Of a stretch of 32,000 nucleotides of DNA, positions 2,203 through 22,422 are shown piece after piece; the first letter of the stretch is position 1; every line of letters starts with the position of its first letter. Position numbers and translations under genes: made by a program. Below the pieces are notes generated by a model. That model made no database searches. It saw only the letters and a list, made by a program, of their open reading frames with translations, and was not told where the DNA came from. The DNA comes from a bacterium (GTDB lineage Bacteria; CG03): assembly GCA_043825615.1 (NCBI GenBank), contig JBDRRS010000004.1, forward strand, positions 82,567 through 114,566, read 5' to 3'.

Positions 2203-2208
2203 GATTTT

Positions 2209-2370: not shown

Positions 2371-2428
2371 AAATCGGGTGGATACGGATAACGGGGCACT
2401 GGGAAAAAATCAGCGGCTTGTTAAAAAT

Positions 2429-2689
2429 TTATATTTTACTTTTTAAGGGATATTTCTCAGGATTTTCAAGATTATCTATATCAAGGTCAACATCAAGGTC
2501 TGACCAGTGTAAATGAAATCCATGCAGAAGTTTTACATTTTGAATATTCTTTACGGGTTGATTTTTAAAATAGGGGTAATCCTTATAGTTAAAGAAATAT
2601 TCTTTACCCTTAACAAGTATCCATAGACCATACGGGGTAATGTTTTCAACGCTTACCGAAATGTTTCTTCCATTTTTTAATAATTTCAT
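2429..2689 (-). CDS. DUF2442-family small protein
   Basis: The translation MKLLKNGRNISVSVENITPYGLWILVKGKEYFFNY...LLHGFHLHWSDLDVDLDIDNL ends in the DUF2442-typical HW..LD.DL signature. I prefer ATG 2689 (GGAG 11 nt upstream) over the track start at 2722. The gene overlaps the 3' end of the DUF4160 gene. Confidence 0.7.
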   Translation of the reverse strand: MKLLKNGRNISVSVENITPYGLWILVKGKEYFFNYKDYPYFKNQPVKNIQNVKLLHGFHLHWSDLDVDLDIDNLENPEKYPLKSKI

Positions 2690-2887
2690 TTTTTCGTTTC
2701 TCCACAATTTTTTGTATTTCATTCAATTGGTTAGGTTTAAGTTTGATGTATGTAGCAAGCGAAATAATAGGTTCTATCCAAAATTTTGCCTCTCCATCCT
2801 CACATCCCACATGTACATGCATGCGCACTTCTTCATTTGATAGAAAATAAATCTATAACCCTTAACTCGAAATACTGTTGGACTCAT
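2646..2887 (-). pseudogene. DUF4160-family gene interrupted by a 1-nt frameshift
   Basis: ATG 2887 opens MSPTVFRVKGYRFIFY, which then runs out of frame into a stop. The -1 frame continues SNEEVRMHVHVGCEDGEAKFWIEP... (the track ORF 2646-2828). Joined, the two parts give the canonical DUF4160 N-terminus (..F.FY.NE...H.HV....EAKFW.EP). The break lies in ttctatcaaatg, around 2839-2841. Confidence 0.65.
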
Positions 2888-2905
2888 AACTATTTCCTTA
2901 AAGTA

Positions 2906-2933
2906 ATTATAGCATGTTCGATTTTATTTCAAA
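2906..2933 (-). promoter_or_regulatory. Candidate extended -10 promoter (TTTGAA-N16-TGcTATAAT) for the DUF4160/DUF2442 pair
   Basis: On the minus strand, TATAAT lies at 2911-2906 preceded by TGC. An AAGGAA Shine-Dalgarno lies 7 nt before ATG 2887. Confidence 0.5.
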
Positions 2934-3068
2934 ACATGCAAGCTGGGAAAACAGGAACGTCCTTGGTTTTCCTGCCTGTTCTTTTTTTGTTTCCTTTTGG
3001 TTTACTGAAATTATTTCACGTGAAATAATTGACCTTTTTCCCGACGACGACGTTTCAGGGTGGTCCAC
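2927..3068. repeat. Island-1 repeat module, copy B
   Basis: See copy A. Copy B has the same order of hairpin (2943-2972), T-rich tract, palindrome and CGACGACG tail. The period between copies is about 698 nt. Confidence 0.85.
3009..3030. promoter_or_regulatory. Perfect 22-bp palindrome AATTATTTCAC|GTGAAATAATT (copy B of the candidate operator)
   Basis: Self-complementary on direct reading. Confidence 0.5.
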
Positions 3069-3127
3069 TTTTTGCAAGATTCCTGAAAATTTGATTTGAT
3101 GAAAAGAAAAATACGGAGGAGGTTAGA

Positions 3128-6311: not shown

Positions 6312-7484
6312 TTAATCTTTTTTATCTCCGGGATATATAGGAGACATCTTCCTCAAGACATTTACAATTTTCTGAAGTTCCTTCACGACAAAATCAATGT
6401 CTTTCTCCGTATTGCACCTGCCTAAACTGAACCTGACTGAGCCCTGGGCGATTTCGGGCGGAATCCCCATCGCGGACAAAACATGGGACGGCTCAAGCGA
6501 ACCGGAAGCGCAGGCGGAACCCGAAGACGCCGCCACGCCTTTTAAATCAAGTTTAAGCACAATGGATTCCCCCTCGATGTATTTAAAAGAAAGGTCGGCG
6601 GTGTTCGGCAGACGGCGGTCGGGGTGACCGTTTAACTTCACGTCCTTTATTGAATTCATTATACCCGAAACGAATTTGTCTCTCAGTTTTTTCAACCTTT
6701 CGTTTTCCTCGCTCATTTCTTTTCCGGCGATTTCAACCGCTTTCGCAAAACCGACGATACCGGCCACATTCTCGGTGCCCGCGCGAGAATTTTTCTCGTG
6801 ATGGCCCCCGTGAATAATGGACTCAAGTTTGGTCCCTTTCCTTATATAAATTACGCCTATGCCCTTGGGCCCGTACAACTTATGCCCCGAAAGAGAAAGC
6901 AGGTCAATTTTCAAGTCGTCCACATTTATCGGTATTTTACCGGCCGCCTGAACGGCGTCGGTGTGAAAAAGAACATTATTCCGTTTTGCAATTTCGCCAA
7001 TTTCCTTAACAGGTTGAATTGTCCCCACCTCGTTATTAGCGTGCATAACCGTTACAAGCACCGTTTCATCGCCGATGTATTTTTTCAGTTCGTCCATACT
7101 CACCACGCCGTATTCGTCGACGGGAAGATACGTAACCCTGTAACCCCTTTTTTCCAGAAATTTACAGGTGCCCAGAACAGCCGGGTGTTCAATTGCAGAC
7201 GTTATAATGTGTTTCCCTTTAACCCCGTTTGCGAAAGCGGCGCCTTTTACCGCAAAATTGTCCGACTCCGTGCCGCCGGAGGTGAAAACAATCTCCCCGG
7301 GGGATGCTCCGAGAAAGCCCGCTATCTTCTCCCGCGCTTCCTCCACCGCCTTCCGCGCGGAGCGGCCGAAGGAATGCAGACTTGACGCGTTGCCGAAATC
7401 CCTTCTGAAATAAGGTGTCATTGCCTTAACGACGCGCGGGTCAACGGGCGTCGTGGCGTTGTGGTCGAGATATATTTTACTCAT
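6312..7484 (-). CDS. nifS: Cysteine desulfurase (NifS/IscS class)
   Basis: Supporting blocks are [36 protein letters not shown] (PLP lysine) and the [17 protein letters not shown] active-site loop. I prefer start ATG 7484, which overlaps the cysE stop by 8 nt. Confidence 0.9.
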
Positions 7485-8205
7485 TTTTTTCTTTCCTGAC
7501 GAGAAACTCATGCTCTATTTCATCTCTCTTTTTTTCAAGGAGCTCGTCTATCTTGCTTACAACCCCCTCCATGGACTCAATTTTTTTAAGACGCTCTTCA
7601 AGTTTATTCTGCTCGGCAAGAACAAATTTTATGGCATCGGCGACAGGGTCGGGAAGTTTGCCGTGTTCGAGCACTTTGAGATGCTCCTGGCTCCAACCCA
7701 TGCCCACTCTTGCCGGAACGCCGACGGCCGTCGCATTCGCGGGAATATCCGTTATCACGACAGAACCCGCGCCTATTCTCGCGTGTTCCCCTATTTTTAC
7801 CGCGCCGAGAACAATCGCACCCGCGCCCACGACAACATTATCCCCGAGCGTGGGATGCCTCTTTTTCTTTGCCTGGCTTGTACCGCCGAGAACAACACCC
7901 TGATAGAGTAAAACATCGTTTCCTATCTCGGCCGTTTCCCCTATTACAACGCCCATCCCGTGGTCAATAAAAAATCTTCTGCCGATTTGCGCCCCGGGGT
8001 GGATCTCTATTCCCGTCAGGTGCCGGCTAACGTGCGAAATAATTCTTGCAAACGCGTATTCCCGCCTCCCGTAAAACCAGTGAGCAATGCGGTGCCACCA
8101 GAGAGCATGAAGGCCCGGATAGCAGAAAAGAACCTCAAGCATATTTTTTGCGGCGGGATCCTTCTTAAAAACCGTTTTCACATCTTCCTTTATTCTTTTA
8201 AACAT
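7477..8205 (-). CDS. cysE: Serine O-acetyltransferase
   Basis: Supporting features are DPAA....E....YPG..A...HR.AH, hexapeptide repeats ([26 protein letters not shown]) and a C-terminal LPDPVA tail like the short Bacillus-type CysE. Confidence 0.9.
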
Positions 8206-8211
8206 TGCGAA

Positions 8212-8895
8212 TCAATCTCCTTTTTCTCTGCCCGGCCGCCGTTTCCTTCTTAAAGTTTTTCCGATATATCTTCCGGCAGCCGGTAATTTTTCAAGCATAT
8301 ATTTTTTAATATTCTTATTATGCACCCTGTTCAGCCCGAAAAGACATTCCGCCTGCAGGGGAGCGGCGGAAATTCCGGCTTTCACTGCAATTTCTTTTAT
8401 TTTCCGGGCGCTCAACCGGTAAACCGGATGGCTGTACGTTATGCCGAATTTCCCGGCGAACGCATCCGCCGCATCCATATACGCAGGGGTCTGTTCCGGA
8501 TAATATGTCTGACCTTTTTCAAAGCCGTCGGCAATCCGATTTATATTATTTTTCCTGCAGTAAATGATCGCCTCCGAAAGCATTGCGAGTTTGCACCCGC
8601 AGCACAGCAGGTTGCCGTATTTTTTTACATCGCTCTCGAGTTCCTTAACGGCAATCGCATGGAATAAAACGCGGCTGCTCATCAATTTCCACGAACACAT
8701 TTTTCCGAACCGTTTCTTTATCAAATCCGCTTTGCGGCGGGAATTGTCCAATCCCAGTTCGGCGCCGTTGTCAAAAGTTACCAGATGCGTTCTGTATCCT
8801 TCCCGCAGATAGCCCACCGCCGCGGCGGAGGAGTCCCTGCCGCCCGAAAACAAAACCAGCACTTCCGGAATTCCGGAATGTTTCTGCTTTTTCAC
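8212..8895 (-). CDS. PP-loop ATP pyrophosphatase superfamily protein (adenine nucleotide alpha-hydrolase); exact function unknown
   Basis: It has an N-terminal SGGRDS PP-loop and a CCGCK motif. The start is GTG with no clear Shine-Dalgarno. Confidence 0.6.
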   Translation of the reverse strand: MKKQKHSGIPEVLVLFSGGRDSSAAAVGYLREGYRTHLVTFDNGAELGLDNSRRKADLIKKRFGKMCSWKLMSSRVLFHAIAVKELESDVKKYGNLLCCGCKLAMLSEAIIYCRKNNINRIADGFEKGQTYYPEQTPAYMDAADAFAGKFGITYSHPVYRLSARKIKEIAVKAGISAAPLQAECLFGLNRVHNKNIKKYMLEKLPAAGRYIGKTLRRKRRPGREKGD

Positions 8896-8911
8896 TTTTT
8901 ACGTTTTTTTC

Positions 8912-9325
8912 TCAAAAACCAGAACAGTCCCCGTTCTTTTCGTTCTTTTTCTTATAAACTTCGGCGGGGTTAAATTCCCTGTCCATTATTATCCGCCAAT
9001 TGTTTCCTTCAAGTTGTCTGAAAAAACACGCTTTGTAACCGAGGTGGCAGGCGCCGTAGGCGGCGGGTTTTACTTTTAGGAGCAGAGAGTCCCCGTCGCA
9101 GTCAAGGTAAATCTCAAGAACTTCCATAAAGTTGCCCGACTCCTCGCCCTTCGTCCAGAGTTTCTTCCGGCTTCTTGAATAGAATGTTGCTTTTTTTGTT
9201 TCCACCGTTTTAAGGAACGCTTCTTCATTCATATAAGCGAGCATCAAAACCTGCCCATCCACGCCGATCAGAACAGCGGGAACAAGCCCCCTGCCATCAA
9301 ATTTTATTTCGTCAATCAGAGCCAT
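8912..9325 (-). CDS. hisI: Phosphoribosyl-AMP cyclohydrolase
   Basis: Supporting blocks are GLVPAV....G.VLMLAYMN.EA...T, FYSRSR..LW.KGE.SG and LDCDGD.LL..V. Confidence 0.9.
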   Translation of the reverse strand: MALIDEIKFDGRGLVPAVLIGVDGQVLMLAYMNEEAFLKTVETKKATFYSRSRKKLWTKGEESGNFMEVLEIYLDCDGDSLLLKVKPAAYGACHLGYKACFFRQLEGNNWRIIMDREFNPAEVYKKKNEKNGDCSGF

Positions 9326-10034
9326 ATTTTTCTATCGCCTCCCGTAAGTCCATTTTGTTTTCGTAAACCGCCTTCCCTATTATAACACCCGCCACCCCTG
9401 TCGAGGCAAGGGCTTCCAAATCCTGCAGCCCCTTAACGCCGCCGGAAGCAATAACCGGAATATCCGTCATCCCGACAATTCCCGAATAAAATTCCGGATC
9501 TATTCCCGCCAGAGTCCCGTCTTTCACAATTGAGGTTACAATCACTTCTCTGACAAGCCGTGTTTTCAAACTGTTGAAGAAATCATCCAGCCCCGCGCCC
9601 GAGCCTTCCCTCCAGCCGTGAATCTTCACGTATTTATTCTCCACGTCCGCGCTTAAAACCACTTTATCCGCAAACCACGACAGGATTTCCCCGAACTGCT
9701 GGATATTGTCAAAAAAAACAGAACCGAGGACAATTTTATCAATCCCCTTTTCAATATACTCCTTCGCCGTTTCAAAACGCCTGATTCCTCCGCCGACGTC
9801 AAGAACAACATCCGTTTTTGCTCTTATGTCAAAAATCGCATCCCGCGTGATTTTGTCATCATCGCCGAAAGCGCCGTCGAGATTTACGATATGAAGACGT
9901 TTTGCTCCCTGCCGGCAGAAGACCCCGGCAACTTCCGCCGGGTTTTCAAAATAAACCTTCTCCTTATCCTGTTTCCCCTGGAAAAGACGGACAACACGCC
10001 CGCCCCTCAAATCAATCGCCGGAATTATCTGCAT
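9312..10034 (-). CDS. hisA: ProFAR isomerase
   Basis: Supporting blocks are MQIIPAIDLRGGRVVRL.QG, H.V.LDGA, .GGGIR and ASGGV... at full length. Confidence 0.9.
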   Translation of the reverse strand: MQIIPAIDLRGGRVVRLFQGKQDKEKVYFENPAEVAGVFCRQGAKRLHIVNLDGAFGDDDKITRDAIFDIRAKTDVVLDVGGGIRRFETAKEYIEKGIDKIVLGSVFFDNIQQFGEILSWFADKVVLSADVENKYVKIHGWREGSGAGLDDFFNSLKTRLVREVIVTSIVKDGTLAGIDPEFYSGIVGMTDIPVIASGGVKGLQDLEALASTGVAGVIIGKAVYENKMDLREAIEKYGSD

Positions 10035-10715: not shown

Positions 10716-11877
10716 GACATCTCCTTATCTCTATTGATTTCCTGTGGTTTTCCATTCCCTCCTCGCCCGCAAGAAATACGGCGGCTCCGCTGTCCGAGGC
10801 AAAAGACCTTTTATCGTAACTGATTTCGGCATAACTTCTGAGAAAAGTTCCGGCGCTCAGCCCTGACGCAAAAGAGGCTGTCCCGCCCGTCGGAAGCGTG
10901 TGGGAAGGCCCCGCCGTATAGTCCCCCATCGCGACGGCGGAATACTTCCCGAAGAAAACGGCTCCGCATTTTCCGAACCTGTTCCTGTACCGTGAAACAT
11001 TTTTAACCATTACAAGAAGGTGCTCGGGCGCAATGGATTCAATTTTAGCCGTCTGCTCCTTTAAATCCTTTATAAGAAAAACAGAAATCCTGCGCCCGAA
11101 AACGCCCCTGATAAAATTAAAAAGACGCTTTGAAGGCGTTATGAAATACGCTTTTGTTTCAGGAGCGTGCTCAAGCTGCGCTGCCAGGTCAATGATAATC
11201 CATTCCTTTTTTACGCTTTCGTCGGCAAGAATCATTATCTCGCTCGGCCCCGCAAGCAAATCAATGCCCACCGCGCCGAAAACCTGTCTTTTCGCTTCCG
11301 TCACAAACCTGTTTCCGGGTCCAGCAATAAAATCAACCTTCGGAATTTCCCCCGCCCCGTACGCAAAAGCGGCAACCGCCTGAGCGCCCGAAATTCTGAA
11401 AAGCGAAGTGACCCCCGAAAGATGGCAGGCGGCCAGAAGCGCATCCGAAATTTTTGAACTCGCGATGTAAATTTCTCTGACGCCTGCGACTTTCGCGGGT
11501 ATCGCATTCATAAGCACCGAAGACGGGTACAGGAACCGGCCGCTCGGAACATAAATTCCCGCTTTTTCCACCGGCGTAAAACAATGCCTTATTTTCAAGC
11601 CGTTCCTCCCGTACGTTATATTTTTATAGCCGCCGCGGACTTTCCTCTGAAAAGAATAAATCTTCTCTGAAATCCCCGTCAGAAACCGGCGGGCTTTTTC
11701 CGGAAGCCGTTTATACGCAAGAGAAAAATCACGGGGCATCAGACGGAGCCCGGCGGGGGATACGGAAACGCCGTTAAACTTTTTCTCAAAATTAAGAACG
11801 GCGGCGATTCCGCGTTTCCTGACTTCCTTCAAAACAGTTGAAACGGTTTCTGCCACATTCGTTTTTTTCATAACCAC
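10684..11877 (-). CDS. hisD: Histidinol dehydrogenase
   Basis: Supporting blocks are GAQAVAAFAYG, IAGPGN.FV..AK, LAGPSE, AQLEH, APEHL and GDY.AGPSHTLPTGGTA.F.SGLS. The ORF overlaps the hisB start by 32 nt. Confidence 0.85.
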   Translation of the reverse strand: MVMKKTNVAETVSTVLKEVRKRGIAAVLNFEKKFNGVSVSPAGLRLMPRDFSLAYKRLPEKARRFLTGISEKIYSFQRKVRGGYKNITYGRNGLKIRHCFTPVEKAGIYVPSGRFLYPSSVLMNAIPAKVAGVREIYIASSKISDALLAACHLSGVTSLFRISGAQAVAAFAYGAGEIPKVDFIAGPGNRFVTEAKRQVFGAVGIDLLAGPSEIMILADESVKKEWIIIDLAAQLEHAPETKAYFITPSKRLFNFIRGVFGRRISVFLIKDLKEQTAKIESIAPEHLLVMVKNVSRYRNRFGKCGAVFFGKYSAVAMGDYTAGPSHTLPTGGTASFASGLSAGTFLRSYAEISYDKRSFASDSGAAVFLAGEEGMENHRKSIEIRRCHEKKKPGKKK

Positions 11878-11878
11878 C

Positions 11879-13156
11879 TCAATCCCCTTTTATTGAAACA
11901 TTTGCGCCGAGCAACTTCAACTTCTTGAAAAAATTTTCGTAGCCCCTGAAGAGATGAGACAGGTCGCTCACCGTGGTTTTGCCGTGCGAGGCAAGACCGG
12001 CTATAATCATCGCGGCAGACGCTCTCAAATCGCAGGCGAGGAGAGAAGCGCCGCTTAACCGGGAACGCCGGACGGTAAGAACATCCCTTTTAAGAAACAT
12101 TTTCGCATTCAACCTTTTCAGTTCATCAACATACATAAACCGCCCGGAAAAAATATTTTCTTTTATCCTGGAGACGCCTGACGCTTTAAGCATATAAACG
12201 GCCCACAGCGGCTGTAAATCGGTCGGGAATCCCGGATATGACTTTGTCTCGATTCCTGCCGATTCCGGACGGGCGGCTGCTGTAATTTTTATACTGTCGG
12301 AAAATATCCGAACACCAGCGCCGGTCGCCGAAAGAGCCCTTGTAACCGACGACAAATGCCCCGGAATAATATTTTGAACTTTTACTTCTCCCCCGACGGA
12401 TGCGGCGGCAAGAAGAAACGTTCCCGCCTCAATCCTGTCCGGCATCACGGAAAACCTGCAGCCGGCGAGGCGCTTTTTCCCCGAAATAACATACGTATTT
12501 TTCACATGCGATATGTCCGCGCCCATCGCTTTCAAAAAAAGATAAAGATCATAGACCTCCGGCTCTTCAGCGGCATTGGAAATTACCGTTTTCCCCGGTA
12601 TGCCGGCAGCCGCCATAAGAAGATTTTCAGTCGCGCCCACCGAAGGGAACCGGAGTTTGATATCCGCCCCTTTCAAAGACCCTTTTCCGAAAACCATTCT
12701 TCCCTGTGAAATTTTGTATTCGGCTCCCAGCGCCTGCAAGCCGTCAAGATGAATATCTATCGGCCGCTCGCCCAGGGCGCACCCTCCCGGAACAGCGAAA
12801 GAACCCTTTTTCCTCATAGCAAGAAGCGGACCCATAACAAGAACCGATGCCCTCAACTTTCTTACAAGGTTTTCGGGAAGGTCTTCGTGCTTCGCTTTTC
12901 CCCTGATTTTCGCCGTGTTTTTGGAAAACCCGATTTCCTTGCCCAGCCGCCTCAGGAGTTCAAAAATCACAAAAATATCGTCGAGGGCGGGGACATTTTC
13001 GATAACGCATTCTTCGTCTGTAAGAAGCGTGGCCGCAAGAATAGGAAGGGCGGCGTTTTTGGAACCGCTTATTTTGACAGACCCTGAAAGACGCTCCGTA
13101 AAAAGACATTCCGCGTGCGACTTTTCTCTTCTTGCTTTCAGTATTTTATTTACCAT
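11879..13156 (-). CDS. murA: UDP-N-acetylglucosamine 1-carboxyvinyltransferase
   Basis: Supporting blocks are L.GSVKISGSKNAALPILAA.LL, GCA.G.RPID.HL and FPTD.Q. I prefer start ATG 13156; the track start at 13195 would overlap prmC by 50 nt. Confidence 0.9.
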   Translation of the reverse strand: MVNKILKARREKSHAECLFTERLSGSVKISGSKNAALPILAATLLTDEECVIENVPALDDIFVIFELLRRLGKEIGFSKNTAKIRGKAKHEDLPENLVRKLRASVLVMGPLLAMRKKGSFAVPGGCALGERPIDIHLDGLQALGAEYKISQGRMVFGKGSLKGADIKLRFPSVGATENLLMAAAGIPGKTVISNAAEEPEVYDLYLFLKAMGADISHVKNTYVISGKKRLAGCRFSVMPDRIEAGTFLLAAASVGGEVKVQNIIPGHLSSVTRALSATGAGVRIFSDSIKITAAARPESAGIETKSYPGFPTDLQPLWAVYMLKASGVSRIKENIFSGRFMYVDELKRLNAKMFLKRDVLTVRRSRLSGASLLACDLRASAAMIIAGLASHGKTTVSDLSHLFRGYENFFKKLKLLGANVSIKGD

Positions 13157-15483: not shown

Positions 15484-15511
15484 TTATATTTCCTCCGTTC
15501 TTCCGGATTTA

Positions 15512-15540
15512 ATTCTCGCAAAAATAAAAACCTGTGTCAA
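15512..15540 (-). promoter_or_regulatory. Candidate sigma-70 promoter for rpmE (TTGACA-N17-GAGAAT)
   Basis: On the minus strand, TTGACA lies at 15540-15535 and GAGAAT at 15517-15512. A GGAGGA Shine-Dalgarno precedes the rpmE ATG. Confidence 0.45.
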
Positions 15541-15562
15541 CATAAATATTCGGCGAAAGAAT

Positions 15563-15591
15563 GGGAAAAGAAGCAAAAATAAAAATGCTTC
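15563..15591 (-). terminator. Candidate intrinsic terminator closing island 2
   Basis: On the minus strand the structure is GAAGCA-TTTTTATTTT-TGCTTC followed by TTTTCCC. The stem is only 6 bp. Confidence 0.35.
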
Positions 15592-15795
15592 TTAAAACTT
15601 TGCCGTAAAACTTACCCTTTGAGTAGTACCGAGTTCGAAATACGGAACAAAGGCATAATCCAGATTATAGCCAAATACCCTTGTTCCTATTCCTCCGCCA
15701 AAACCATTCTGCTCTGTGATTTTATTGTTTGATAAATTATTGTAAAGAGCCCCTGCCTTTTCTCTGAAAAAATTGTTTTCATTCTTTGGCTTCCC
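15592..15795 (-). pseudogene. C-terminal remnant of an outer-membrane beta-barrel-like protein with no start codon
   Basis: This is a 67-codon open frame ending ..GYNLDYAFVPYFELGTTQRVSFTAKF*, which has alternating hydrophobic residues and a terminal Phe like an OMP beta-signal. It contains no ATG, GTG or TTG, is bounded upstream by stops, and overlaps the 3' end of the TPR gene. Confidence 0.4.
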
Positions 15796-17515
15796 TTATA
15801 TTATTTTGAAGGATTAAACTGCATTCCTTCTTGTACTTTTCGGATAGTTGGTCATCAGGGGTAATTTCCAGAACTCTTATAAACTCTTCTATTGCTTTTT
15901 TATACATTCCGGTTATTTTATAAACCATCGCTAAATTAAAATGTGCATCTGAATAATCTGAATTTATTTCTATTGCCCGTTTAAATTCAAGAACGGCTTT
16001 ATTGTATAATTTCTTCGCAGCATAAGCGCCCCCGAGATTGTTGTATAAGGTAACATCTTTGGGGTCCAGTTCAATTGCTCTTTTAAATTCGGAAATTGCC
16101 TCATCATATCTGCCCATTTCACAATAAATAAGCCCAAGATTATTATGAGCGCTTGTATAATCCTGAGAAATTTCGATTACTTTTCCATATTCAGAAATTG
16201 ATTTACCGTACTGTTTATTTTTATCATATTCAACAGCCAGATTATAATGTGCTCTCGCGGATTGAGGAGAACTTTCCACAGTTTTTGTCCAGAGAGTGAG
16301 ATTATTTTTCCAGTCGGTATTTCTTTTAATGGTTCTCACCGCATAAAAGATAAAAATGCAAAAAAATAAAAAATTTACGGCATTTTTAGCTCTTGAAAAG
16401 ACTCTTATTTTCAAGGCAGCTATCGAGAGCAATATACAAAAACCGATTGACGGGAGATACAAAAAACGTTCCGCTATCAATGCCGATATTGGTATAAGGT
16501 TGGATACCGGAATTAACGTAACAAAGAACCAGAAGACGGCAAACGAATATTCCTTATCCGACTTAACGGCAATTACTACGAGAATAATCAGGCATGCGAC
16601 AGCAATAAGAACCCCCGGTTCAAAAAATGATTTTGAAATCGGGAAAGCATATTCAACGCATAATCTACCCGGTAAGAAAAGCAACTTTATATAATAGAGG
16701 AAAACCCTGCTTATGGTGAGCAGAGTAAAATACAATCCCCCTCCCCAATATTTGCCCCGGCTCACTTCTCCCAAAATAGAATATCTTACCAGAATATACA
16801 AACACGCTGCCGCAAGCAAAGGCAGATAATACTTTGCCTTTTTCATGATAACTTTTAAATTTCTTCCTGAAATAAAATAGTAATCGTATATGACCAATAC
16901 GAGAGGCAGAGTTACGGCCATTTCTTTTGACATAAGCGCTACAAGATAGAAAATAATCGCAATTGAGTAATATATCAACTTTAGTTTCGGGTAAGTGCCT
17001 TTAATAAATAGAACAAAAGATGAAAGGAAAAAGAACGCGCACAAAAGGTCCGGCCTGGCTGATATATATGCAACCACTTCAGTTTGCACCGGATGGACTA
17101 TAAAAATAAGGCTTGTAAAAAGAGCAATCTTTGAATTTTTCAAAAATAAATTTATCAGAAAATACACAAGAATACCATTTAAAGCATGTAAAAGAATATT
17201 GATAAAACGGTATCCAAAAGGATTTAATCCCCACACAGAATAATCAATTAGAAAAGAAATAATAGGAATGGGCCTATAGAACCTTATACCGGACTTCTCG
17301 GGACTGCCGACGAAATACGGTGAAGTTAAAACAGCGGGTATCTGTTCTATGCTTTTGTATTTACTGTTTACTATTAAATATTCATCGTCATAAACGAATT
17401 CGTTTTTCAAAGAATTGGCATAGACAAGAAATGAAGCTAAAATTATTAAGCCGATTGCGGGCCATTTTTTTTCAAAAAATCCTGTCTGCTGTTTTGCCCG
17501 GTTTTTTTCTTTCAT
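15779..17515 (-). CDS. GT-C-type (PMT_2/TMTC-like) polytopic membrane glycosyltransferase fused to C-terminal TPR repeats
   Basis: The N-terminal ~400 aa has about 10 TM segments and a first-loop motif YANSLKNEFVYDDE (acidic DD/DE as in PMT, ArnT and TMTC). The C-terminal part has about 5 TPR units (AHYNLAVEY.., AHNNLGLIY.., LYNNLGGAY.., AHFNLAMVY..). Confidence 0.75.
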   Translation of the reverse strand: MKEKNRAKQQTGFFEKKWPAIGLIILASFLVYANSLKNEFVYDDEYLIVNSKYKSIEQIPAVLTSPYFVGSPEKSGIRFYRPIPIISFLIDYSVWGLNPFGYRFINILLHALNGILVYFLINLFLKNSKIALFTSLIFIVHPVQTEVVAYISARPDLLCAFFFLSSFVLFIKGTYPKLKLIYYSIAIIFYLVALMSKEMAVTLPLVLVIYDYYFISGRNLKVIMKKAKYYLPLLAAACLYILVRYSILGEVSRGKYWGGGLYFTLLTISRVFLYYIKLLFLPGRLCVEYAFPISKSFFEPGVLIAVACLIILVVIAVKSDKEYSFAVFWFFVTLIPVSNLIPISALIAERFLYLPSIGFCILLSIAALKIRVFSRAKNAVNFLFFCIFIFYAVRTIKRNTDWKNNLTLWTKTVESSPQSARAHYNLAVEYDKNKQYGKSISEYGKVIEISQDYTSAHNNLGLIYCEMGRYDEAISEFKRAIELDPKDVTLYNNLGGAYAAKKLYNKAVLEFKRAIEINSDYSDAHFNLAMVYKITGMYKKAIEEFIRVLEITPDDQLSEKYKKECSLILQNNIREAKE

Positions 17516-17572
17516 TTGAGTAATAAAATCAAATTATGAAACACAATTATCCATATTTTATTACTTAACCCG

Positions 17573-19024
17573 CTACTTGTCCACATTATCGTATGAATAT
17601 ATATGATAGTAAGTTAAAAGATATTTTATATCAAGCCCGTAATAAAATCCTCTAAATAGATAAGTGAAAAGTCGTATAAAGTATTTAAATTTCTGCTGAT
17701 TCAGCATTCTGAGGAACCTTTTGCCGAATGTTAAAAGATATGCAATCTTTTGAAAATTTTCGGCCTTTTGCGGAGAAACATCTTTTAATCTCACGACTGC
17801 TCCGAATGTGATATTGTCCGCCTCTTTCCACCTCAAAGGACTGACGCTTCCTCCGCACTCTTTTATCTGCTTCACCCCTTCTTTTGTAAACGGCTTGTAA
17901 ATAAAAAACGCCGAGCGTTCCGCATCAAGTTCCCTTGCGAATTCTATCGTTTCCCCGATTGTCCTTTTGTCTTCGCCGGGCCCGCCGATTATATAAAACG
18001 CCGTAAAGCCGATTCCTGCTTTTCTGCAGAGATGAAACATTTCTCTAACTTTATCGTTTGATATGTTTTTTCTATAGATTTCATTTCTGATACGTTCGTT
18101 TCCGCACTCCACGCCGGCTCTAATAATCGCACAGCCGCTTTTCCCGAGGATTTTAATTTTCTTTTCGTTCAAATTGTCAATTCTTGAAAATACGCTGAAG
18201 CGAAATTCTTTATGGAGCCCCAAATTTCTGTATTCACCGCAAAAATTCTCAATCCATTCTTCATTTATCGTAAAAACAGGGTCAAATAACTGGGCAATGC
18301 GTGGAGGATGGTCCAGATTTCTATATTTGTCCCACTGGTATTTTATTTCTCCCGCAAACTGTATGGGGTTTCTCAAGCGAAAATATTCCCCTCCGACTGC
18401 ATCTTTAATTCCACAGGCATCACAGTAGGTGCAGCGATACGGACAACCTCTGCTCCCCTGAATATAAAGCATCCCGAGAAAGTAGAAATATTTTTCGAGG
18501 TCCTCCCACAGATTCCAATCCGGATACGGGAACCGGTCTATATTTTCGATAAATTGTCCGCCCGGGTTCCTTATCAGTTTTTTATTTTCCTTTACCCAGA
18601 TTCCTTTTATTCCTTCCAAACTTTTCCCGTCTTCAACCCTTGAAAGATATTCTTCAAGAGCGAATTCCCCGTCGCCTATACAAACGGCGTCAACTTCCGG
18701 AATAGAAAGAGTCTCTTCCGGATAAACGGAAGCATGATGTCCTCCGAGAATAACAGGAATCCTGTATTTTTCTTTTATTTCTTTAATGATTGTTTTAACA
18801 TATTGCATATACATTGTGTTAGTTGAAATGCCTATGATATCAGGTTTATGTTTTTCAATCCCGGATTTCAGATGTTTCTTCCAGTGCTTGCGATGAAAAA
18901 CCAAATCAAGAATGCTTGCTTTATGCTTTGTTCTTTCATTTATATATGTGGCAATCTGAGTAATACCAATATCAAGCGCGCTGAAATCGCCGCCTAATAC
19001 AGCGTTAACAAACTGGATGTGCAT
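17573..19024 (-). CDS. Cobalamin-binding-domain radical SAM enzyme (class B type)
   Basis: It has an N-terminal Rossmann-like B12-binding region (PDIIGIST....PVILGGHHAS) followed by the GSRGCPYRCTYCD CX3CX2C motif. Confidence 0.85.
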   Translation of the reverse strand: MHIQFVNAVLGGDFSALDIGITQIATYINERTKHKASILDLVFHRKHWKKHLKSGIEKHKPDIIGISTNTMYMQYVKTIIKEIKEKYRIPVILGGHHASVYPEETLSIPEVDAVCIGDGEFALEEYLSRVEDGKSLEGIKGIWVKENKKLIRNPGGQFIENIDRFPYPDWNLWEDLEKYFYFLGMLYIQGSRGCPYRCTYCDACGIKDAVGGEYFRLRNPIQFAGEIKYQWDKYRNLDHPPRIAQLFDPVFTINEEWIENFCGEYRNLGLHKEFRFSVFSRIDNLNEKKIKILGKSGCAIIRAGVECGNERIRNEIYRKNISNDKVREMFHLCRKAGIGFTAFYIIGGPGEDKRTIGETIEFARELDAERSAFFIYKPFTKEGVKQIKECGGSVSPLRWKEADNITFGAVVRLKDVSPQKAENFQKIAYLLTFGKRFLRMLNQQKFKYFIRLFTYLFRGFYYGLDIKYLLTYYHIYSYDNVDK

Positions 19025-19750
19025 TTAAGCCCTTTTTTTAAATAAACTCCGGAACTTCAAAAATAAAACTAAAAAAAACGCTTCTTTAATCATTCTCCAT
19101 GATAACTTGGATGCGCCCGTTTTTCGATTATTAAAAGTAAACGGGAACTCGCCTATTTTAAAACAATCTTCCTTTGCCAGATAATTTATTTCAATCTGGA
19201 CGGCAAAATCCCTGGAACGGATTTTACCGAAATTTATGGCTTCGAGGAATTTCCTGCTCAAACATTTGTAACCGCTGGTGCCGTCGGATAACCCTATATT
19301 CAAAATAACATTAATATATTTATTCGCCAAGCGGCTTAAAATAACTCTTTTCCACGGCCAATTAACCACGTTCAACCTGCCCCCGAGAAATCTCGAGCCA
19401 ATGACCAGATCATATTTTTTCATTAAACTTAAAAATTCGGGGATATACTTAGGATGATGAGATAAATCGGCATCCATCTGAATTACATAATCATACCCGT
19501 TCTTTAAAGCGAATTTATACCCTTCCACATAAGCCGTCCCCATTCCTAATTTCTTCTTTCTATGCATAATAAAAACACAATTTTTATATTTTCCTGCGAG
19601 GGCATTTGCAACAGCACCGGTTCCGTCCGGTGAATTATCATCTATAATTAAAATATGATGCTCCGGGCCCAAATCAAGGATAGCAGATATCAACTCGTTA
19701 ACACTTGACCTTTCATTGTAAGTAGGAACAATAATTAACGTTTTCATCAT
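19025..19750 (-). CDS. GT2 family glycosyltransferase, polyprenyl-phosphate hexose synthase (DPM1/ArnC-like)
   Basis: Supporting blocks are IIVPTYNE...., IIDDNSPDGT, G.G.AY..G, QMDADLSHHP and LSDGTSGYK, in a protein of about 240 aa. Confidence 0.85.
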   Translation of the reverse strand: MMKTLIIVPTYNERSSVNELISAILDLGPEHHILIIDDNSPDGTGAVANALAGKYKNCVFIMHRKKKLGMGTAYVEGYKFALKNGYDYVIQMDADLSHHPKYIPEFLSLMKKYDLVIGSRFLGGRLNVVNWPWKRVILSRLANKYINVILNIGLSDGTSGYKCLSRKFLEAINFGKIRSRDFAVQIEINYLAKEDCFKIGEFPFTFNNRKTGASKLSWRMIKEAFFLVLFLKFRSLFKKRA

Positions 19751-19751
19751 A

Positions 19752-21137
19752 TTACAAAAACCGGTAAATCTTTTGCCTGAGTTTTATCCATCCCCATTCG
19801 GAGAATAAATGTTTAAAAATATAATTGCTTCTCCGGGGATTACAATAGAATTTTATTAACGCTTTAATTTGAAGATACTTTAAGACAGGGTATGAAATAT
19901 CCGGATTCTTAAAAGCATATTGAGAATAATAATTAAAATTGTTCAAATTGTCATCCAATCTGAATTTATGATTATCTTTAACCATCCTATACAAAAATGT
20001 TCCGGGTAATGGGGTGACAAGAGAAAAAGTTGCTTCGTCAATAGGTAAAGAATCGGCGAATGCAATTGTTTCTTTAATTTCATCCGCGGTTTCACCCGGC
20101 GCGCCGAGCATAAAGAAACTCATTACTTTTATTCCGATTTCTTTTGCCTGTTTTATAGTCAGTTTCGCCTGCTCAATGCTAATCCCTTTATTATAAATTT
20201 CATTTAATACCTTCTCTGAGGCAGATTCAACCCCCAAGTGTAAAACCCTCAAACCGGCCGAATACATTCTTTCCATTAATTTTTTATCAAGGGAATCAAC
20301 CCTGCTGTTGCACCCCCAGATTAAATTGAGATTTTCCCTTTCCATGAGGCCGCAAAATTCATTAAGCCATTTATGATTTAACGTAAAAACATCATCATGA
20401 AAATAAATTGCGTCAAGGGAATATTCTTTTTTAATCTGTTTTAATTCCCGGATTAAATTTTCCGGACTTCTCCGGCGGGTTTTCTTTCCAAAAATAAACT
20501 CAAGTGTGGGCTGACAGAATGTGCACCGATAAGGACATCCCCTTGAAGTAATCATCGTAGCGGCTCTTAAATTTGTAGAAATAGAATCAAAGTAAATTAA
20601 ACGCTTCGAATAAAACTCCATTTCTATAAGATCCCTCGCGGGAAACGGTAAAATATCAAGATTTTCTATATAGGTTCGGGAAGAATTTTTGAAAATTTCT
20701 TTTCCTGATTTATACCAAATTCCTTTAATGGCGGTAAAATCTTTCGAATGAAACTTTTCAATTATTTTCTTTAACGTTTCTTCCCCCTCTCCAATTACTA
20801 CAATGTCAACCCAATCTACAAGACCTTCGGGTCTTACTGCAGCGCATGGACCACCTGCAAGAGTGAAAATTCCTAAATCCCTTGTCATTTTTGCTACCTT
20901 AAGGGCACCATTATACATCACAGTATCAAAATAAATACCGGCAATGTCCGGGCTTTCTTCTTTTATTTTTTTGCAGATGTACTTAAACGACGGGTGAAAA
21001 GTAGCATCTATAATTGAAACTTTAACTTCTGAAAAAGTTCGCAGATAAGATGCAAGATAAAGCAGCCCCAGAGGCGGGTCCCCCGTAGAAAGTTTTAACC
21101 GGGGAAAAATTAAGCATACTTTTAATTTATTTTCCAT
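19752..21137 (-). CDS. Cobalamin-binding-domain radical SAM enzyme (class B type), second paralog
   Basis: It has an N-terminal B12-binding-like region (PLGLLYLASYL...PDIAGIY...LAGGPCA) followed by TSRGCPYRCTFCQ. I prefer ATG 21137 over the track TTG at 21176. Confidence 0.85.
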   Translation of the reverse strand: MENKLKVCLIFPRLKLSTGDPPLGLLYLASYLRTFSEVKVSIIDATFHPSFKYICKKIKEESPDIAGIYFDTVMYNGALKVAKMTRDLGIFTLAGGPCAAVRPEGLVDWVDIVVIGEGEETLKKIIEKFHSKDFTAIKGIWYKSGKEIFKNSSRTYIENLDILPFPARDLIEMEFYSKRLIYFDSISTNLRAATMITSRGCPYRCTFCQPTLEFIFGKKTRRRSPENLIRELKQIKKEYSLDAIYFHDDVFTLNHKWLNEFCGLMERENLNLIWGCNSRVDSLDKKLMERMYSAGLRVLHLGVESASEKVLNEIYNKGISIEQAKLTIKQAKEIGIKVMSFFMLGAPGETADEIKETIAFADSLPIDEATFSLVTPLPGTFLYRMVKDNHKFRLDDNLNNFNYYSQYAFKNPDISYPVLKYLQIKALIKFYCNPRRSNYIFKHLFSEWGWIKLRQKIYRFL

Positions 21138-21339
21138 TATATGACCAGACCGAAGATGTAAAAAATTTTCCAGCAAACCTTATGTTTCTTATCCGGTGAT
21201 TTTCGACTATCTGAGAAGTGTCGTCGTAAATAAAGTCATTTTTTAAAGTATTGGCATAAACAATGGAAGAGACCAGAACAATCAGTCCGATTGTAAACCA
21301 GTTTTTCTCAAAAAATTTTTGTTTTTTGATTTCTTTCAT
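21127..21339 (-). pseudogene. 70-codon N-terminal fragment paralogous to the GT-C/TPR gene (first TM plus YAN.LKN.F.YDD loop only)
   Basis: MKEIKKQKFFEKNWFTIGLIVLVSSIVYANTLKNDFIYDDTSQIV aligns with MKEKNRAKQQTGFFEKKWPAIGLIILASFLVYANSLKNEFVYDDEYLIV of 15779-17515. The rest of the protein is missing. Confidence 0.55.
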
Positions 21340-21494
21340 CCGGACAATTCACACTTCTGTCCTCTTTTTCCGGGATTGAGAAAGTTCCGGTTTATGGTCA
21401 TGAGTCCTGTTTCGTTTTTAAAACCTGCCTGAAAATCCAAGAAATATTTATTTCCTTTTATTCTCATGACAATTAAATCCTGATGAATGCTCAT
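21336..21494 (-). CDS. Unlisted 52-aa ORF (MSIHQDLIVMRIKGNKYFLDFQAGFKNETGLMTINRNFLNPGKRGQKCELSG)
   Basis: I translated this by hand. Its TGA overlaps the ATG of the next ORF (ATGA). The Shine-Dalgarno is weak and I recognise no family. Confidence 0.3.
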   Translation of the reverse strand: MSIHQDLIVMRIKGNKYFLDFQAGFKNETGLMTINRNFLNPGKRGQKCELSG

Positions 21495-21534
21495 AACCCT
21501 GTCAATTACCCTTTATTCCCCGTTGTCCATTGTT

Positions 21535-22422
21535 TCAGCCTCTGAAAATTTCAAGGGGGGTCTTGAAAGGGACTTCGCAAATTCCTTTAATCATACCTCC
21601 GAGCCGGACAGTTAGAAAATACCCGTTCTCTTTTTTGTTTTTTTCAAGAACTTCAACAGGTACCGCCTCCTCCCCCGTTACCCCTATCATACGCGCAAGG
21701 TACCGGGCAATCTCGCGGCCGTCGGTAATCCTGACAAAAATCAAGGTTCCCGCAGAAATTTTTTCTATCGTTGCGGGACGCTTAAAAAGAAACTTCCGGC
21801 GGCCCATGACGACTTCGATTTTTAACTTTATCTGGGGAGACCTTGAAATAAATTCCGCTGCGGTGATTTTGCCGGCCGAAGAAATCTGTCTGAAATCAGA
21901 AACGGATATTCTTTCCTTTCTGAATTCAAAAATAACATCTTCGTTTAATATCTTCGTCAGGAGCAGCTTAAGAGACCTCTCAATTTCCGCATAATCGACA
22001 CTGTCAAAAATTGCAAAAAAGGACTCGTGGTCCCCGTCCTGAAAAAATGACCTCACCGCCTGCGTTACGGCAACCGTTTTTTCGTGGACGATTTCTTCGC
22101 TCAGACGCTGCGTGTAAATCTTATTCTCGAATTCGGGCCAGGGCATTGAGAGAGCAGAGGAGAAAACATACGGATTCTGACTGATGGAAACGGCAAACCT
22201 CAAAATTCTTTTCTGAGAGGCATTTAAAACAATGAACAGCATTCCGCAGTTATAACTGCTTTTTGTGGCGAACTTAATTTTTAAAACCACGAGGTTTTTG
22301 TGGCGCGAGGCGAGCCAGCGGAAAGCCATGTTCAGATTATTGCCGTAGATGCGTAAAATTTTTTCGGCGACTCTTTCTGAACAACCCGCCTCGTCAATGA
22401 GAATTTTTGCTTCGTCGGTCAT
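21535..22422 (-). CDS. Hypothetical protein with a UBA/TS-N-like N-terminal helix bundle
   Basis: This is a long ORF with core-like composition, coupled to the cinA stop through a TAATG overlap. The N-terminus is AKILIDEAGCSERVAEKILRIYGNNLNMAFRWL. I recognise no family. Confidence 0.6.
   Translation of the reverse strand: MTDEAKILIDEAGCSERVAEKILRIYGNNLNMAFRWLASRHKNLVVLKIKFATKSSYNCGMLFIVLNASQKRILRFAVSISQNPYVFSSALSMPWPEFENKIYTQRLSEEIVHEKTVAVTQAVRSFFQDGDHESFFAIFDSVDYAEIERSLKLLLTKILNEDVIFEFRKERISVSDFRQISSAGKITAAEFISRSPQIKLKIEVVMGRRKFLFKRPATIEKISAGTLIFVRITDGREIARYLARMIGVTGEEAVPVEVLEKNKKENGYFLTVRLGGMIKGICEVPFKTPLEIFRG

Follow-up and report, generated by a model that had tools for sequence, protein, structure and literature searches.

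A recently acquired AT-rich island with two cobalamin-type radical SAM genes, a DPMS-type GT2 gene and a TMTC-like GT-C gene: a candidate periplasmic glycosylation module

A compact block of four genes lies inside a conserved gene array of an uncultured Elusimicrobia-like bacterium, within a 32,000-nt stretch of DNA that is here called the window. Two of its genes encode radical SAM enzymes, here named rSAM-A and rSAM-B; the other two encode a glycosyltransferase placed between them (GT2) and a membrane protein (GT-C/TPR). How did this block come to stand there, and what could its products do together?

An insertion into a conserved gene array

The boundaries of the island were refined by blastn from the empty sites in relatives and enclose 5,994 bp (window positions 15541-21534). 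The GC content is 36.4% in this segment against 46.5% in the rest of the window, which bears out the sharp AT-rich drop claimed in an earlier note made from the sequence alone; the two 60-nt lines counted there were verified as well (26.7% GC at 17581, 50.0% at 10201). GC3 is 0.33-0.41 in the four island genes versus 0.47-0.53 in the flanking genes. Both anomalies are confined to the present genome, the cassette being at host composition in ten other genomes.

In the relatives L094/L095 (96-97% identical) the blastn alignment jumps from window position 21535 to 15540 with 4 nt between, and the junction in L090, of the same identity, is empty in the same way; the island is also missing from L091 and L092 (82-87%). 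At the empty site (four to five contigs) the stop codon of a 295-aa gene runs straight into the rpmE promoter. These sites confirm that the block splits a conserved array, as had been proposed. It is a strain-specific insertion, absent from close relatives and present in one strain of the host, and is a recently acquired 6-kb island with a four-gene operon as cargo. The features are as follows:

15541..21534 (no strand): AT-rich strain-specific island, flanked by the 295-aa gene (stop codon) and the rpmE promoter (-35 element)
21340..21534 (-): non-coding island leader; weak promoter-like site (21472-21443)
21127..21339 (-): remnant of a second GT-C/TPR paralogue, first 70 codons, FIYDD motif included
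19752..21137 (-): radical SAM enzyme rSAM-A (461 aa), B12-binding domain, CPYRCTFC as cluster motif (residue 201)
19025..19750 (-): GT2 of DPM1/DPMS type, 241 aa, DAD at residues 93-95, hydrophobic C-terminal helix
17573..19024 (-): radical SAM enzyme rSAM-B (483 aa), B12-binding domain, CPYRCTYC as motif (residue 194)
15779..17515 (-): TMTC-like GT-C glycosyltransferase (578 aa) with a membrane domain of 11 helices (residues 1-415) and four C-terminal TPRs
15590..15780 (-): remnant of 62 codons ending ...RVSFTAKF*, with the look of an outer-membrane beta-barrel C-terminus
~15566..15592 (-): candidate intrinsic terminator (stem 8 bp, loop 10 nt, then a U-rich tail) at the island 3' end
15512..15540 (-): native rpmE promoter, adjoining the island on its outer side, TTGACA-17-GAGAAT with TG

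All four genes are on the minus strand, intact and correctly called. The close packing noted earlier agrees with the gene coordinates, the gaps from rSAM-A through GT2 and rSAM-B to GT-C/TPR being 1, 0 and 57 nt.

The promoter-like site of the leader reached 9 of 12 matches in the promoter scan. No Rfam family was found in the leader (21340..21534), and hence no cobalamin riboswitch. The earlier note had placed a gene fragment on each side. The upstream one is a GT-C/TPR remnant that shares 55% identity with two N-termini, that of P0001 and that of the island GT-C, with 72% nucleotide identity over 96 nt to 17385-17480 (D1), and its 3' end overlaps the start of rSAM-A by 11 nt. The downstream one had no match in family searches, and its likeness to a beta-barrel is therefore one of sequence pattern. 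The terminator proposed for the island is backed by a candidate hairpin (AAGAAGCA-N10-UGCUUCUU followed by a U-rich tail): segment 15541-15610 (-) folds with an MFE of -16.4 kcal/mol (z = -4.6), and 0 of 200 shuffles were equally stable. A simple scan reported no terminator in the island, missing this hairpin because of its long loop. The rpmE promoter is kept in the island-free relatives (alignments A3, A5).

The two edge fragments, a missing oxidoreductase partner (see below) and the lack of any flippase gene in the island, including the GtrA type, could mean that the island is in decay and its genes no longer serve a function. This is very improbable: the four ORFs are long and intact, operon spacing is tight, the catalytic motifs are complete in all four, and the copy in L004, from an independent sequencing run, is identical.

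The four encoded proteins

The calling of both radical SAM proteins as cobalamin-type enzymes is supported by PF02310 and PF04055 (2e-16 and 4e-27 in rSAM-A, 6e-18 and 9e-12 in rSAM-B). They share 32% identity; rSAM-A is a 100% match to P0121. HpnJ is the best named NCBIfam match of both, at 118-178 bits (177 for rSAM-A) against a cutoff of 578 bits, so neither is HpnJ, and no named-family cutoff in NCBIfam is reached by either. The nearest solved sequences in the PDB are AprD4 and MgmA (3e-24 and 2e-20 for rSAM-A). The AprD4 fold is capable of sugar deoxygenation instead of methylation. With a sugar diol-dehydratase (AprD4), MgmA and HpnJ as nearest relatives, the C-methylation suggested earlier remains one option only.

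The GT2 carries PF00535 (7e-28). Its best PDB match is the DPMS of P. furiosus (5mlz, 2.6e-30), followed by ArnC (4e-11) and GtrB (2e-5), and its best NCBIfam matches are AglJ, PgfS, PpgS and ArnC, all below cutoff. It thus groups with the polyprenyl-phosphate sugar synthases, in line with its first description as DPM1/ArnC-like, and is a putative polyprenyl-phosphate hexosyltransferase.

The GT-C/TPR assignment is borne out by fold, motifs and repeats. In a Foldseek search of AF2 models (pLDDT 90 and 92) against the PDB, the 39 best matches were all GT-C enzymes, among them ArnT (5f15, E 5e-5), STT3, AglB, Pmt4, AftD and EmbB, and further PglB, PimE, DPY19 and ALG3. The protein contains DD43-44, YRP80-82, R154xD156, K197E198xxxT202 and E349R350xxY353, that is, five of the seven TMTC donor/metal-binding motifs: the EL1 DD motif (M1), M2, M3, M4 and M7. 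Across 41 homologues D44, R154, K197, E198 and Y353 are invariant and D43, E349 and R350 nearly so. The four TPRs lie at about residues 420-560; PF08409 gave no match in Pfam. The closest homologues (47% identity) stand in unrelated contexts, with no adjoining rSAM or GT2 genes.

Gene associations in other genomes and the proposed pathway

An uncharacterised core of this set of genes is shared by many bacteria and small archaea. Orthologues of rSAM-B (52-64% identity) adjoin those of rSAM-A, at no more than 1.6 kb, in 17 other loci spanning DPANN archaea, Omnitrophota, Planctomycetia and Elusimicrobiota. GT2 orthologues (41-47% identity) lie nearby, within 5 kb, in 7 loci; at least 10 more loci have a small GT2 gene adjoining an rSAM-A homologue. 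The conserved core is rSAM-A plus rSAM-B, with or without the GT2. In L010 (Elusimicrobiota) an isolated cassette FAD-rSAM_A-GT2-rSAM_B, with the gene order of the window, stands among housekeeping genes without other polysaccharide genes.

GT-C genes occur near rSAM-A-family genes in at least eight loci. Five are of the PMT_2 type (counted above the Pfam cutoff): those of L012, L015, L018 and L034 directly adjoin the pair or lie within about 1.5 kb of it, and that of L026 is about 7 kb distant. Three are TMTC-like GT-C/TPR genes that adjoin rSAM-A homologues (L071, L082, L084). Some of this adjacency may be chance, since GT-C/TPR paralogues are very abundant in Omnitrophota-like genomes. The expectation that rSAM-GT2-rSAM-GT-C/TPR recurs as a unit failed, this exact order being found in the present strain and in no other genome among 82 loci; what the neighbourhoods do support is a functional link between the rSAM genes, a DPMS-like GT2 and GT-C genes. 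They also brought up a partner outside the earlier reader's view, a PRK07233-family FAD oxidoreductase, which together with a DPMS-like GT2 often joins the pair elsewhere. It is absent from the 32-kb window, and the pathway here may therefore be incomplete or different.

We give roughly even odds (about 0.5) to a periplasmic glycosylation module in which a polyprenyl-phosphate sugar is made, tailored and used by a GT-C enzyme. By homology, the GT2 would act at the cytoplasmic membrane face, taking a hexose from a nucleotide sugar and linking it to polyprenyl phosphate. The rSAM pair, as its conserved gene linkage suggests, would remodel the lipid-linked sugar by radical chemistry, the candidates being C-methylation, AprD4-like dehydration or deoxygenation, and HpnJ/Cds-like ring contraction; in most other genomes the FAD oxidoreductase would participate too. 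From its fold and motifs, the TMTC-like enzyme would transfer the sugar in the periplasm, and its TPR domain may select the acceptor, most likely a protein. The earlier note is thus supported in its domain calls, in the insertion and in a functional rSAM/GT2/GT-C link; its exact unit did not hold, and C-methylation is not singled out.

Elsewhere the pair lies inside large loci, L088 and L089, amid genes for a Wzx flippase, GT2s, GT4s, methyltransferases, an acetyltransferase, asparagine-synthase-like proteins and epimerases; L005 and L007 are similar. The contexts of L088 and L089 fit the tailoring of a nucleotide sugar or a repeat unit as well as that of a lipid-monophosphate sugar.

Given such loci, the island may have been transferred out of a surface-polysaccharide locus, its rSAM pair acting on a nucleotide sugar or a growing repeat unit instead of a polyprenyl-monophosphate sugar, and GT-C/TPR being an independent neighbour from the donor. 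The fragments at both edges suggest a cut-out of something larger, and AprD4, the nearest solved relative, uses a free aminoglycoside sugar. We regard this as possible but rather doubtful, as the L010 cassette lacks polysaccharide neighbours, the GT2 is specifically DPMS/ArnC-like and not a repeat-unit GT2, and GT-C genes lie near rSAM genes in eight independent loci.

The FAD partner, nearest to HpnE and then to the CrtI and CrtD desaturases, raises another alternative: the rSAM pair, with this oxidoreductase elsewhere, would modify the isoprenoid lipid as such (carrier or membrane), for example by methylation or (de)saturation, and the GT2 would add a head-group sugar, giving a glycolipid and not a donor. 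The rSAMs match HpnJ, HpnR and the 'lipid biosynthesis B12-binding/radical SAM' family TIGR04072 (1e-31 to 1e-52), and class B enzymes methylating hopanoids and GDGTs exist (PMC13459092). This is unlikely, since the scores to these families and to HpnE/Crt are well under the cutoffs, the GT2 matches polyprenyl-phosphate sugar synthases, and the repeated GT-C adjacency favours a donor role. Many carriers, moreover, are DPANN archaea, which are usually without lipid synthesis.

It is comparably improbable that the rSAMs work in the cytoplasm in the manner of RiPP-type class B methylases and modify a protein or peptide acceptor, which after export would be glycosylated by GT-C/TPR with an ordinary polyprenyl-phosphate hexose from the GT2. 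Peptides are bound by TPR domains, and P0221, an rSAM-A homologue, carries a fused TPR-like region without an intervening membrane helix. The matches to ApyD (2e-41), rSAM_ocin_1 (3e-28) and MgmA, a protein glutamine C-methylase, point the same way, but all are far below the family cutoffs; no precursor-peptide gene is present in the island or beside the pair in L010, and linkage to a GT2, an FAD oxidoreductase and polysaccharide loci is atypical of RiPP clusters.

Comparison with known systems

The proposed polyprenyl-phosphate-sugar module resembles the three-component periplasmic glycosylation systems, a class recently described (PMC11127046). GtrA/GtrB/GtrC, ArnC/ArnEF/ArnT and the actinobacterial Ppm1/Pmt likewise combine a cytoplasmic GT2 making a polyprenyl-phosphate sugar with a GT-C enzyme outside the cytoplasm, and the island proteins match DPMS, ArnC and GtrB on the one side and the ArnT, PMT and STT3 folds on the other. 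In contrast to these systems, the island has no GtrA/ArnEF-type flippase gene, and its GT2 is bracketed by B12-domain rSAM genes, usually joined elsewhere by the PRK07233 FAD gene, an arrangement present in no described three-component system. A literature search combining radical SAM, GT-C, polyprenyl phosphate and cobalamin gave no matches and no characterised equivalent.

For the rSAMs, the closest solved enzymes are AprD4 (PDB 6fd2), a radical SAM diol-dehydratase from the apramycin pathway, and MgmA (PDB 9ccb). The E-values are only 3e-24 and 2e-12, over partial length, and the substrates of AprD4 and MgmA, a free aminoglycoside and a protein glutamine, differ from the proposed lipid-linked sugar.

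The eukaryotic O-mannosyltransferases TMTC1-4 (GT-C/PMT clan, DUF1736) share with the island GT-C an 11-helix GT-C domain, non-cytoplasmic TPRs and ArnT as best structural template. Of their motifs (PMC7801869), M1 (DD), the M2 core (YRP), M3 (RxD), M4 (KExxxT) and M7 (ERxxY) are conserved, whereas M5 (DW in EL4) and M6 (PxxP) are absent. The island protein also differs in its missing PF08409 match, its only four TPRs and its bacterial origin, and its donor would be a bacterial polyprenyl-phosphate sugar.

A precedent for the order of steps is given by HpnI/HpnK/HpnJ (hopanoid cyclitol ether) and Cds (calditol synthase), in which a hexose is placed on a lipid by a glycosyltransferase and the lipid-linked sugar is then rearranged by a radical SAM enzyme (PMC13459092). 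For HpnJ, contraction of the sugar ring is proposed. In contrast to these pathways, the island has no hopanoid or GDGT genes nearby; polyprenyl phosphate would serve as its lipid, and the pathway would probably yield a donor and not an end product.

The island and its insertion into a conserved gene array

The island interrupts an array of genes which all lie on the minus strand. In the 5' to 3' direction of these genes, the order is as follows (coordinates are those of the window):

Array before the island, minus strand: lgt, rnfDGEAB, YhdP/DUF748-like gene, cinA, lineage-specific 295-aa gene
15541-21534: island
21127-21339, minus strand: remnant, N-terminal 70 aa of a second GT-C/TPR paralogue
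19752-21137, minus strand: rSAM-A, radical SAM protein
19025-19750, minus strand: GT2
17573-19024, minus strand: rSAM-B, radical SAM protein
15779-17515, minus strand: GT-C/TPR
15590-15780, minus strand: remnant, 62-codon beta-barrel-like C-terminus
Array after the island, minus strand: rpmE, prfA, prmC, murA, hisD/B/A/I, QueC-like gene, hexapeptide transferase, class V aminotransferase, nadA

The gene set, the spacing of 1, 0 and 57 nt and the two bounding fragments described in the earlier note, made from the sequence alone, are all confirmed. The AT-rich block reported there is also present in the recomputed composition: the GC content equals 0.32-0.41 in each 500-nt window across 15.5-21.5 kb compared to about 0.46-0.51 in most flanking windows, and 36.4% in the refined island compared to 46.5% in the rest of the window. 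The GC3 values are 0.33-0.41 in the four island genes and 0.47-0.53 in neighbouring genes, and the two 60-nt lines counted in that note have a GC content of 26.7% and 50.0%. The candidate terminator folds into a real structure (-16.4 kcal/mol, z = -4.6) with a hairpin loop of 10 nt; a simple terminator scan at the island's end returned nothing.

The 295-aa protein encoded at the island's flank has nine database relatives, and the taxon-named ones are all labelled Elusimicrobia. In two contigs (L091 and L092) with an 85% and 82% identical 295-aa protein, the array is wholly kept and rpmE directly follows the 295-aa gene. A relative with 96-97% nucleotide identity has been found in three independent samples (L094, an NCBI MAG; L095 from ENA; L090 from JGI), where the junction of the empty site reads ...GAGGATGA-TTTA-TTGACA..., with 4 nt separating the stop codon from the rpmE promoter's -35 element. 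A metagenome scan with the 295-aa protein gave a single 1.25-kb contig, which served as the third empty site. The blastn alignment of these relatives skips from window position 21535 to 15540, and together with the empty sites this places the island at 15541-21534 (5,994 bp). The proposal that the island splits a conserved array is thereby borne out, and the island is, with near certainty, a strain-specific insertion. It displays the features of a horizontally acquired element; (i) it is carried by one strain; (ii) close relatives possess the exact empty site; (iii) its composition is deviant. In ten other genomes the GC content of the homologous cassette equals that of the host, and the anomaly observed here therefore points to an island taken up recently from a donor with a GC content near 36%. 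Strain-level presence and absence marks the cassette as a mobile trait of surface variation.

No integrase or recombinase ORF was detected in the island, and the searches for a tRNA integration site and for Rfam families, including the cobalamin riboswitch, were negative. Target-site duplications and terminal inverted repeats at the island ends gave weak, chance-level matches only.

A separate contig, L004 (Logan SRR26275509_15656; 6,061 bp), is 100% identical to window 15500-21560 and consists of the island with 26-41 nt of each flank. Such a shape may represent the assembly-graph branch pattern expected of a sample in which some strains carry the island and others lack it. Other variable places have been noticed along the array. 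Between hisI and the hexapeptide-transferase gene lies a gene for a PP-loop ATPase of the QueC/ThiI-like kind (8212-8895, minus strand); the region 8226-8895 is missing from that position in L091 and L092, its GC content is not anomalous, and it is a second strain-specific insertion, of a single gene. The stretch at about 1400-3100 is also AT-rich (GC 0.31-0.34), contains a TehB-like methyltransferase gene (1471-2202, minus strand) and a DUF2442 gene (2429-2722, minus strand), and may be another island. In L091, the space between prfA and prmC contains a small ORF and a gene of the Fic/RhuM type (10984-11957).

Domain and fold assignments of the island proteins

The rSAM-A (461 aa) and rSAM-B (483 aa) proteins share 32% identity and both contain PF02310 and PF04055, i.e. 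an N-terminal B12-binding domain and a radical SAM core with the CxxxCxxC motif (CPYRCTFC, CPYRCTYC). The best NCBIfam matches are HpnJ (177.5 and 118 bits, with a cutoff of 577.6 bits) and BchE, and neither protein belongs to a named functional family, as all matches (HpnJ, BchE, HpnR, PhpK, MgmA, AprD4 and others) fall far under the cutoffs. The closest solved proteins to both are AprD4 and MgmA. The DxHxxG motif is absent from both enzymes, as it is from many class B enzymes. C-methylation is the majority activity among class B radical SAM enzymes, and AprD4 carries a B12-binding domain yet is not known to need cobalamin. An Omnitrophota rSAM-A homologue of 41% identity (P0221; contig L096, 10001-12201) possesses a C-terminal TPR-like fusion with no membrane helix between the two parts, which hints that some members of the rSAM-A family bind a cytoplasmic protein partner or substrate.

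The GT2 protein (241 aa) matches PF00535 (7e-28) and contains a DAD motif at residues 93-95 within VIQMDADLSHHP. Its best solved relative is the dolichol-phosphate mannose synthase (DPMS) of Pyrococcus furiosus (5mlz, 2.6e-30 over residues 2-224), followed by three ArnC structures (ArnC 4e-11) and GtrB (2e-5). The top four NCBIfam matches, AglJ, PgfS, PpgS and ArnC, are all polyprenyl-phosphate sugar synthases and lie far under their cutoffs. With 50-60 bits against cutoffs of 325-529, the protein reaches none of the named equivalogs and is thus not a member of AglJ, PpgS or ArnC. The relationships to PDB and NCBIfam entries agree with the earlier assignment, in that the nearest relatives are polyprenyl-phosphate sugar synthases and not polymerising or repeat-unit GT2 enzymes, and on this basis the protein is predicted to work like a DPM1/DPMS enzyme.

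In the GT-C/TPR protein (578 aa) Pfam detects four TPRs only. These form a C-terminal array of TPR_1/TPR_2 stretches (residues about 420-560, E 2e-30), modelled as paired helices at 420-571. A single-sequence search of the GT-C domain against the PDB gave no match, and TPR matches overwhelmed the profile search. Foldseek with the full-length model likewise returned TPR proteins only, and the membrane domain was therefore remodelled alone (residues 1-417; AlphaFold pLDDT 92, pTM 0.92). The top 39 PDB matches of this domain are all GT-C proteins (probability 0.97-1.0, TMq 0.36-0.53), among them ArnT, STT3, AglB, PglB, Pmt1/2/4, AftA/B/D, EmbA/B, PimE, DPY19 and ALG3. The predicted fold and the acidic motif of the first extracytoplasmic loop, FVYDD (D43-D44; among 41 homologues, D44 is invariant and D43 is conserved in 90% or more), both favour the GT-C identity suggested earlier for this membrane protein.

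The TMTC motif set M1-M7, as defined in PMC7801869, was evaluated for conservation over the same number of homologues (41). Five motifs are present and conserved: DD43-44 (M1), YRP80-82 (M2), R154-P-D156 (M3), K197-E198-M-A-V-T202 (M4) and E349-R350-F-L-Y353 (M7). The YRP core alone is kept of the (SHKS)YRP motif M2, and M occupies the third position of KE(T/Q)xxT in M4. M5 (DW in EL4) is absent, with KYWGG in its place and the sole DW at 401-402, the junction of the membrane domain and the TPRs; M6 (PxxP in TM9) is also absent, the sequence being PVSNLIP. The island protein matches neither PF08409 (DUF1736) nor PMT/PMT_2. Its family is very large: of the candidates scored, 1,072 match at E <= 0.001. 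Among the best 120 homologues, nine match PF13231, two PF02366 and one PF08409, and the taxon-named ones are mostly Omnitrophota. The domain and fold assignments of the four island genes are of high confidence.

The upstream GT-C fragment was considered as a recent duplication of the intact gene. With an identity of 72% at the nucleotide and 55% at the protein level this origin was rejected, and the fragment is a paralogue remnant. The occurrence of this remnant together with the intact gene suggests that in the donor the rSAM-GT2-rSAM block had replaced most of the first gene in a tandem GT-C/TPR pair. Such tandem pairs are common. The 62-aa downstream fragment has no family match and is presumably the C-terminus of an outer-membrane beta-barrel.

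Recurrence of the radical SAM pair

The two closest GT-C/TPR homologues (P0001 and P0009) occur in unrelated gene contexts, and the synteny search was therefore moved to the radical SAM side. It covered 80 genome loci around rSAM-A homologues and the contigs of individual proteins, with each ORF scored against the island proteins. An rSAM-B orthologue (52-64% identity) lies no more than 1.6 kb, usually 0-10 nt, from an rSAM-A orthologue in 17 loci, labelled as Woesearchaeota, Nanoarchaeota, Thermoplasmatota, Methanosarcinales, Omnitrophota, Planctomycetia, Elusimicrobiota and Fibrobacteraceae. The conserved core is the rSAM pair. The closest homologues of rSAM-A (52%) and rSAM-B (59-63%) are located on two archaeal-looking contigs (L005 and L007), where genes for Hjc, family B DNA polymerase, Cdc6 and IS605 OrfB are present as well. 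The pair has thus crossed the boundary between archaea and bacteria.

Seven bacterial loci have a GT2 orthologue (41-47% identity) at a distance of at most 5 kb, and weaker DPMS-like small GT2 genes adjoin rSAM-A homologues in at least ten further loci. An FAD oxidoreductase of about 424 aa is adjacent in eight pair loci (L007, L009, L010 at 8702-9979, L013, L016, L018, L026 and L030). Both copies scanned reach the cutoff of NCBIfam PRK07233 ("hypothetical protein"), with HpnE as the next-best match; no such gene was found in the 32-kb window. The closest architecture, FAD-rSAM_A-GT2-rSAM_B in the same order as in the window, belongs to the Elusimicrobiota locus L010. There the cassette stands alone; its neighbours to one side are rho and a pair of genes for outer-membrane proteins, and to the other side a response regulator, lysS and lolE/D. 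Just upstream of the cassette, at 7373-8464, is a gene for a PorV/PorQ-like outer-membrane protein (83 bits, cutoff 90).

A TPR-fused GT-C orthologue is absent from every pair locus. PMT_2-type GT-C genes over the Pfam cutoff occur near the pair in L012, L015, L018 and L034 (adjacent or within about 1.5 kb) and in L026/L089 (about 7 kb away in L026), with weaker matches in L029, L030 and L051. TMTC-like GT-C/TPR genes adjoin an rSAM-A homologue (37-43% identity) in three deltaproteobacterial loci, of which two are labelled Desulfobacterales-type. The genes overlap by 40 nt in L071 and are separated by 14 nt in L084, with a third GT-C gene, another B12-rSAM gene and an LPG_synthase_TM flippase-like gene nearby; the order in L082 is GT2, rSAM-A, methyltransferase and GT-C/TPR. 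The region 5000-17800 of L084 (Desulfobacterales), with two TMTC-like and one PMT_2+TPR GT-C/TPR genes, three B12-domain rSAM genes and LPG_synthase_TM, is the richest linkage of rSAM to GT-C/TPR found.

Surface-polysaccharide clusters surround the pair in L088 and L089. A 72-aa PQ-loop/MtN3 (SemiSWEET-like) gene directly follows rSAM-B in the Omnitrophota locus L088 (12878-13096) and is a possible candidate for a small flippase or transporter of the pathway.

The idea of a periplasmic glycosylation module is borne out in part: its logic and domain calls stand. The recurrence of rSAM-GT2-rSAM-GT-C/TPR as a conserved unit of four genes does not, and the FAD partner was missing from the set originally proposed.

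Proposed pathway and relation to known systems

The island contains an intact, recently acquired four-gene operon, with a function assigned to each gene at the level of homology. Judging by homology, the GT2 would make a polyprenyl-phosphate hexose and the GT-C/TPR protein would transfer the lipid-linked sugar on the periplasmic side, its TPRs selecting the acceptor. Between these two steps, judging by gene linkage only, the rSAM pair would modify the sugar on its lipid carrier. The candidate reactions are C-methylation, AprD4-like dehydration, or ring contraction of the lipid-bound hexose of the HpnJ/Cds type (PMC13459092).

The rSAM pair is probably coupled in function to a DPMS-like GT2, and the full pathway as stated is given a probability of roughly 0.5. 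A more specific version, in which the pair (with the FAD partner where present) converts the polyprenyl-phosphate hexose to a C-branched, deoxygenated or ring-contracted (carbocyclic) donor, installed by the GT-C on periplasmic proteins or glycans, is speculative and rather doubtful. Should that version hold, it would be the first case of radical SAM tailoring on a polyprenyl-monophosphate sugar, and one spread widely over DPANN archaea, Omnitrophota, Elusimicrobiota, Planctomycetia and Desulfobacterales. A dedicated small flippase (GtrA, ArnE/F) is lacking, since, apart from shadows of the four genes, no ORF of 40 aa or longer remains in the island. As both the flippase and the FAD partner are missing, the pathway may use genes located elsewhere in the genome or be a shortened variant.

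The GT-C enzymes that glycosylate with polyprenyl-phosphate sugars, as in Arn, Gtr, PMT, TMTC and Emb/Aft, influence resistance to antibiotics, serotype and the biology of the cell envelope, and the surfaces of ultra-small bacteria and archaea are thought to mediate host attachment. To our knowledge, few ways to alter a lipid-linked sugar have been described, e.g. formylation and deformylation in Arn or epimerisation by DprE1/E2. If correct, the combination of the rSAM pair with a DPMS-like GT2 and a GT-C would add radical chemistry to this repertoire. It would also provide a function for two large unnamed class B radical SAM subfamilies that uncultured bacteria and archaea of ultra-small size often carry. 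The four-gene version is small enough for heterologous expression.

No literature linking radical SAM enzymes, GT-C and polyprenyl phosphate was found in a search that left out most subscription-journal work, so this is absence of evidence; the literature searched likewise holds no description of radical SAM tailoring tied to a DPMS-like GT2 and a GT-C. The island components lie outside every named equivalog. Compared to the three-component Gtr, Arn and Ppm-Pmt systems, the island follows a similar logic without the flippase component. The logic of the TMTC-type transferases is similar as well, and the island GT-C differs from them in two of the seven motifs (M5 and M6).
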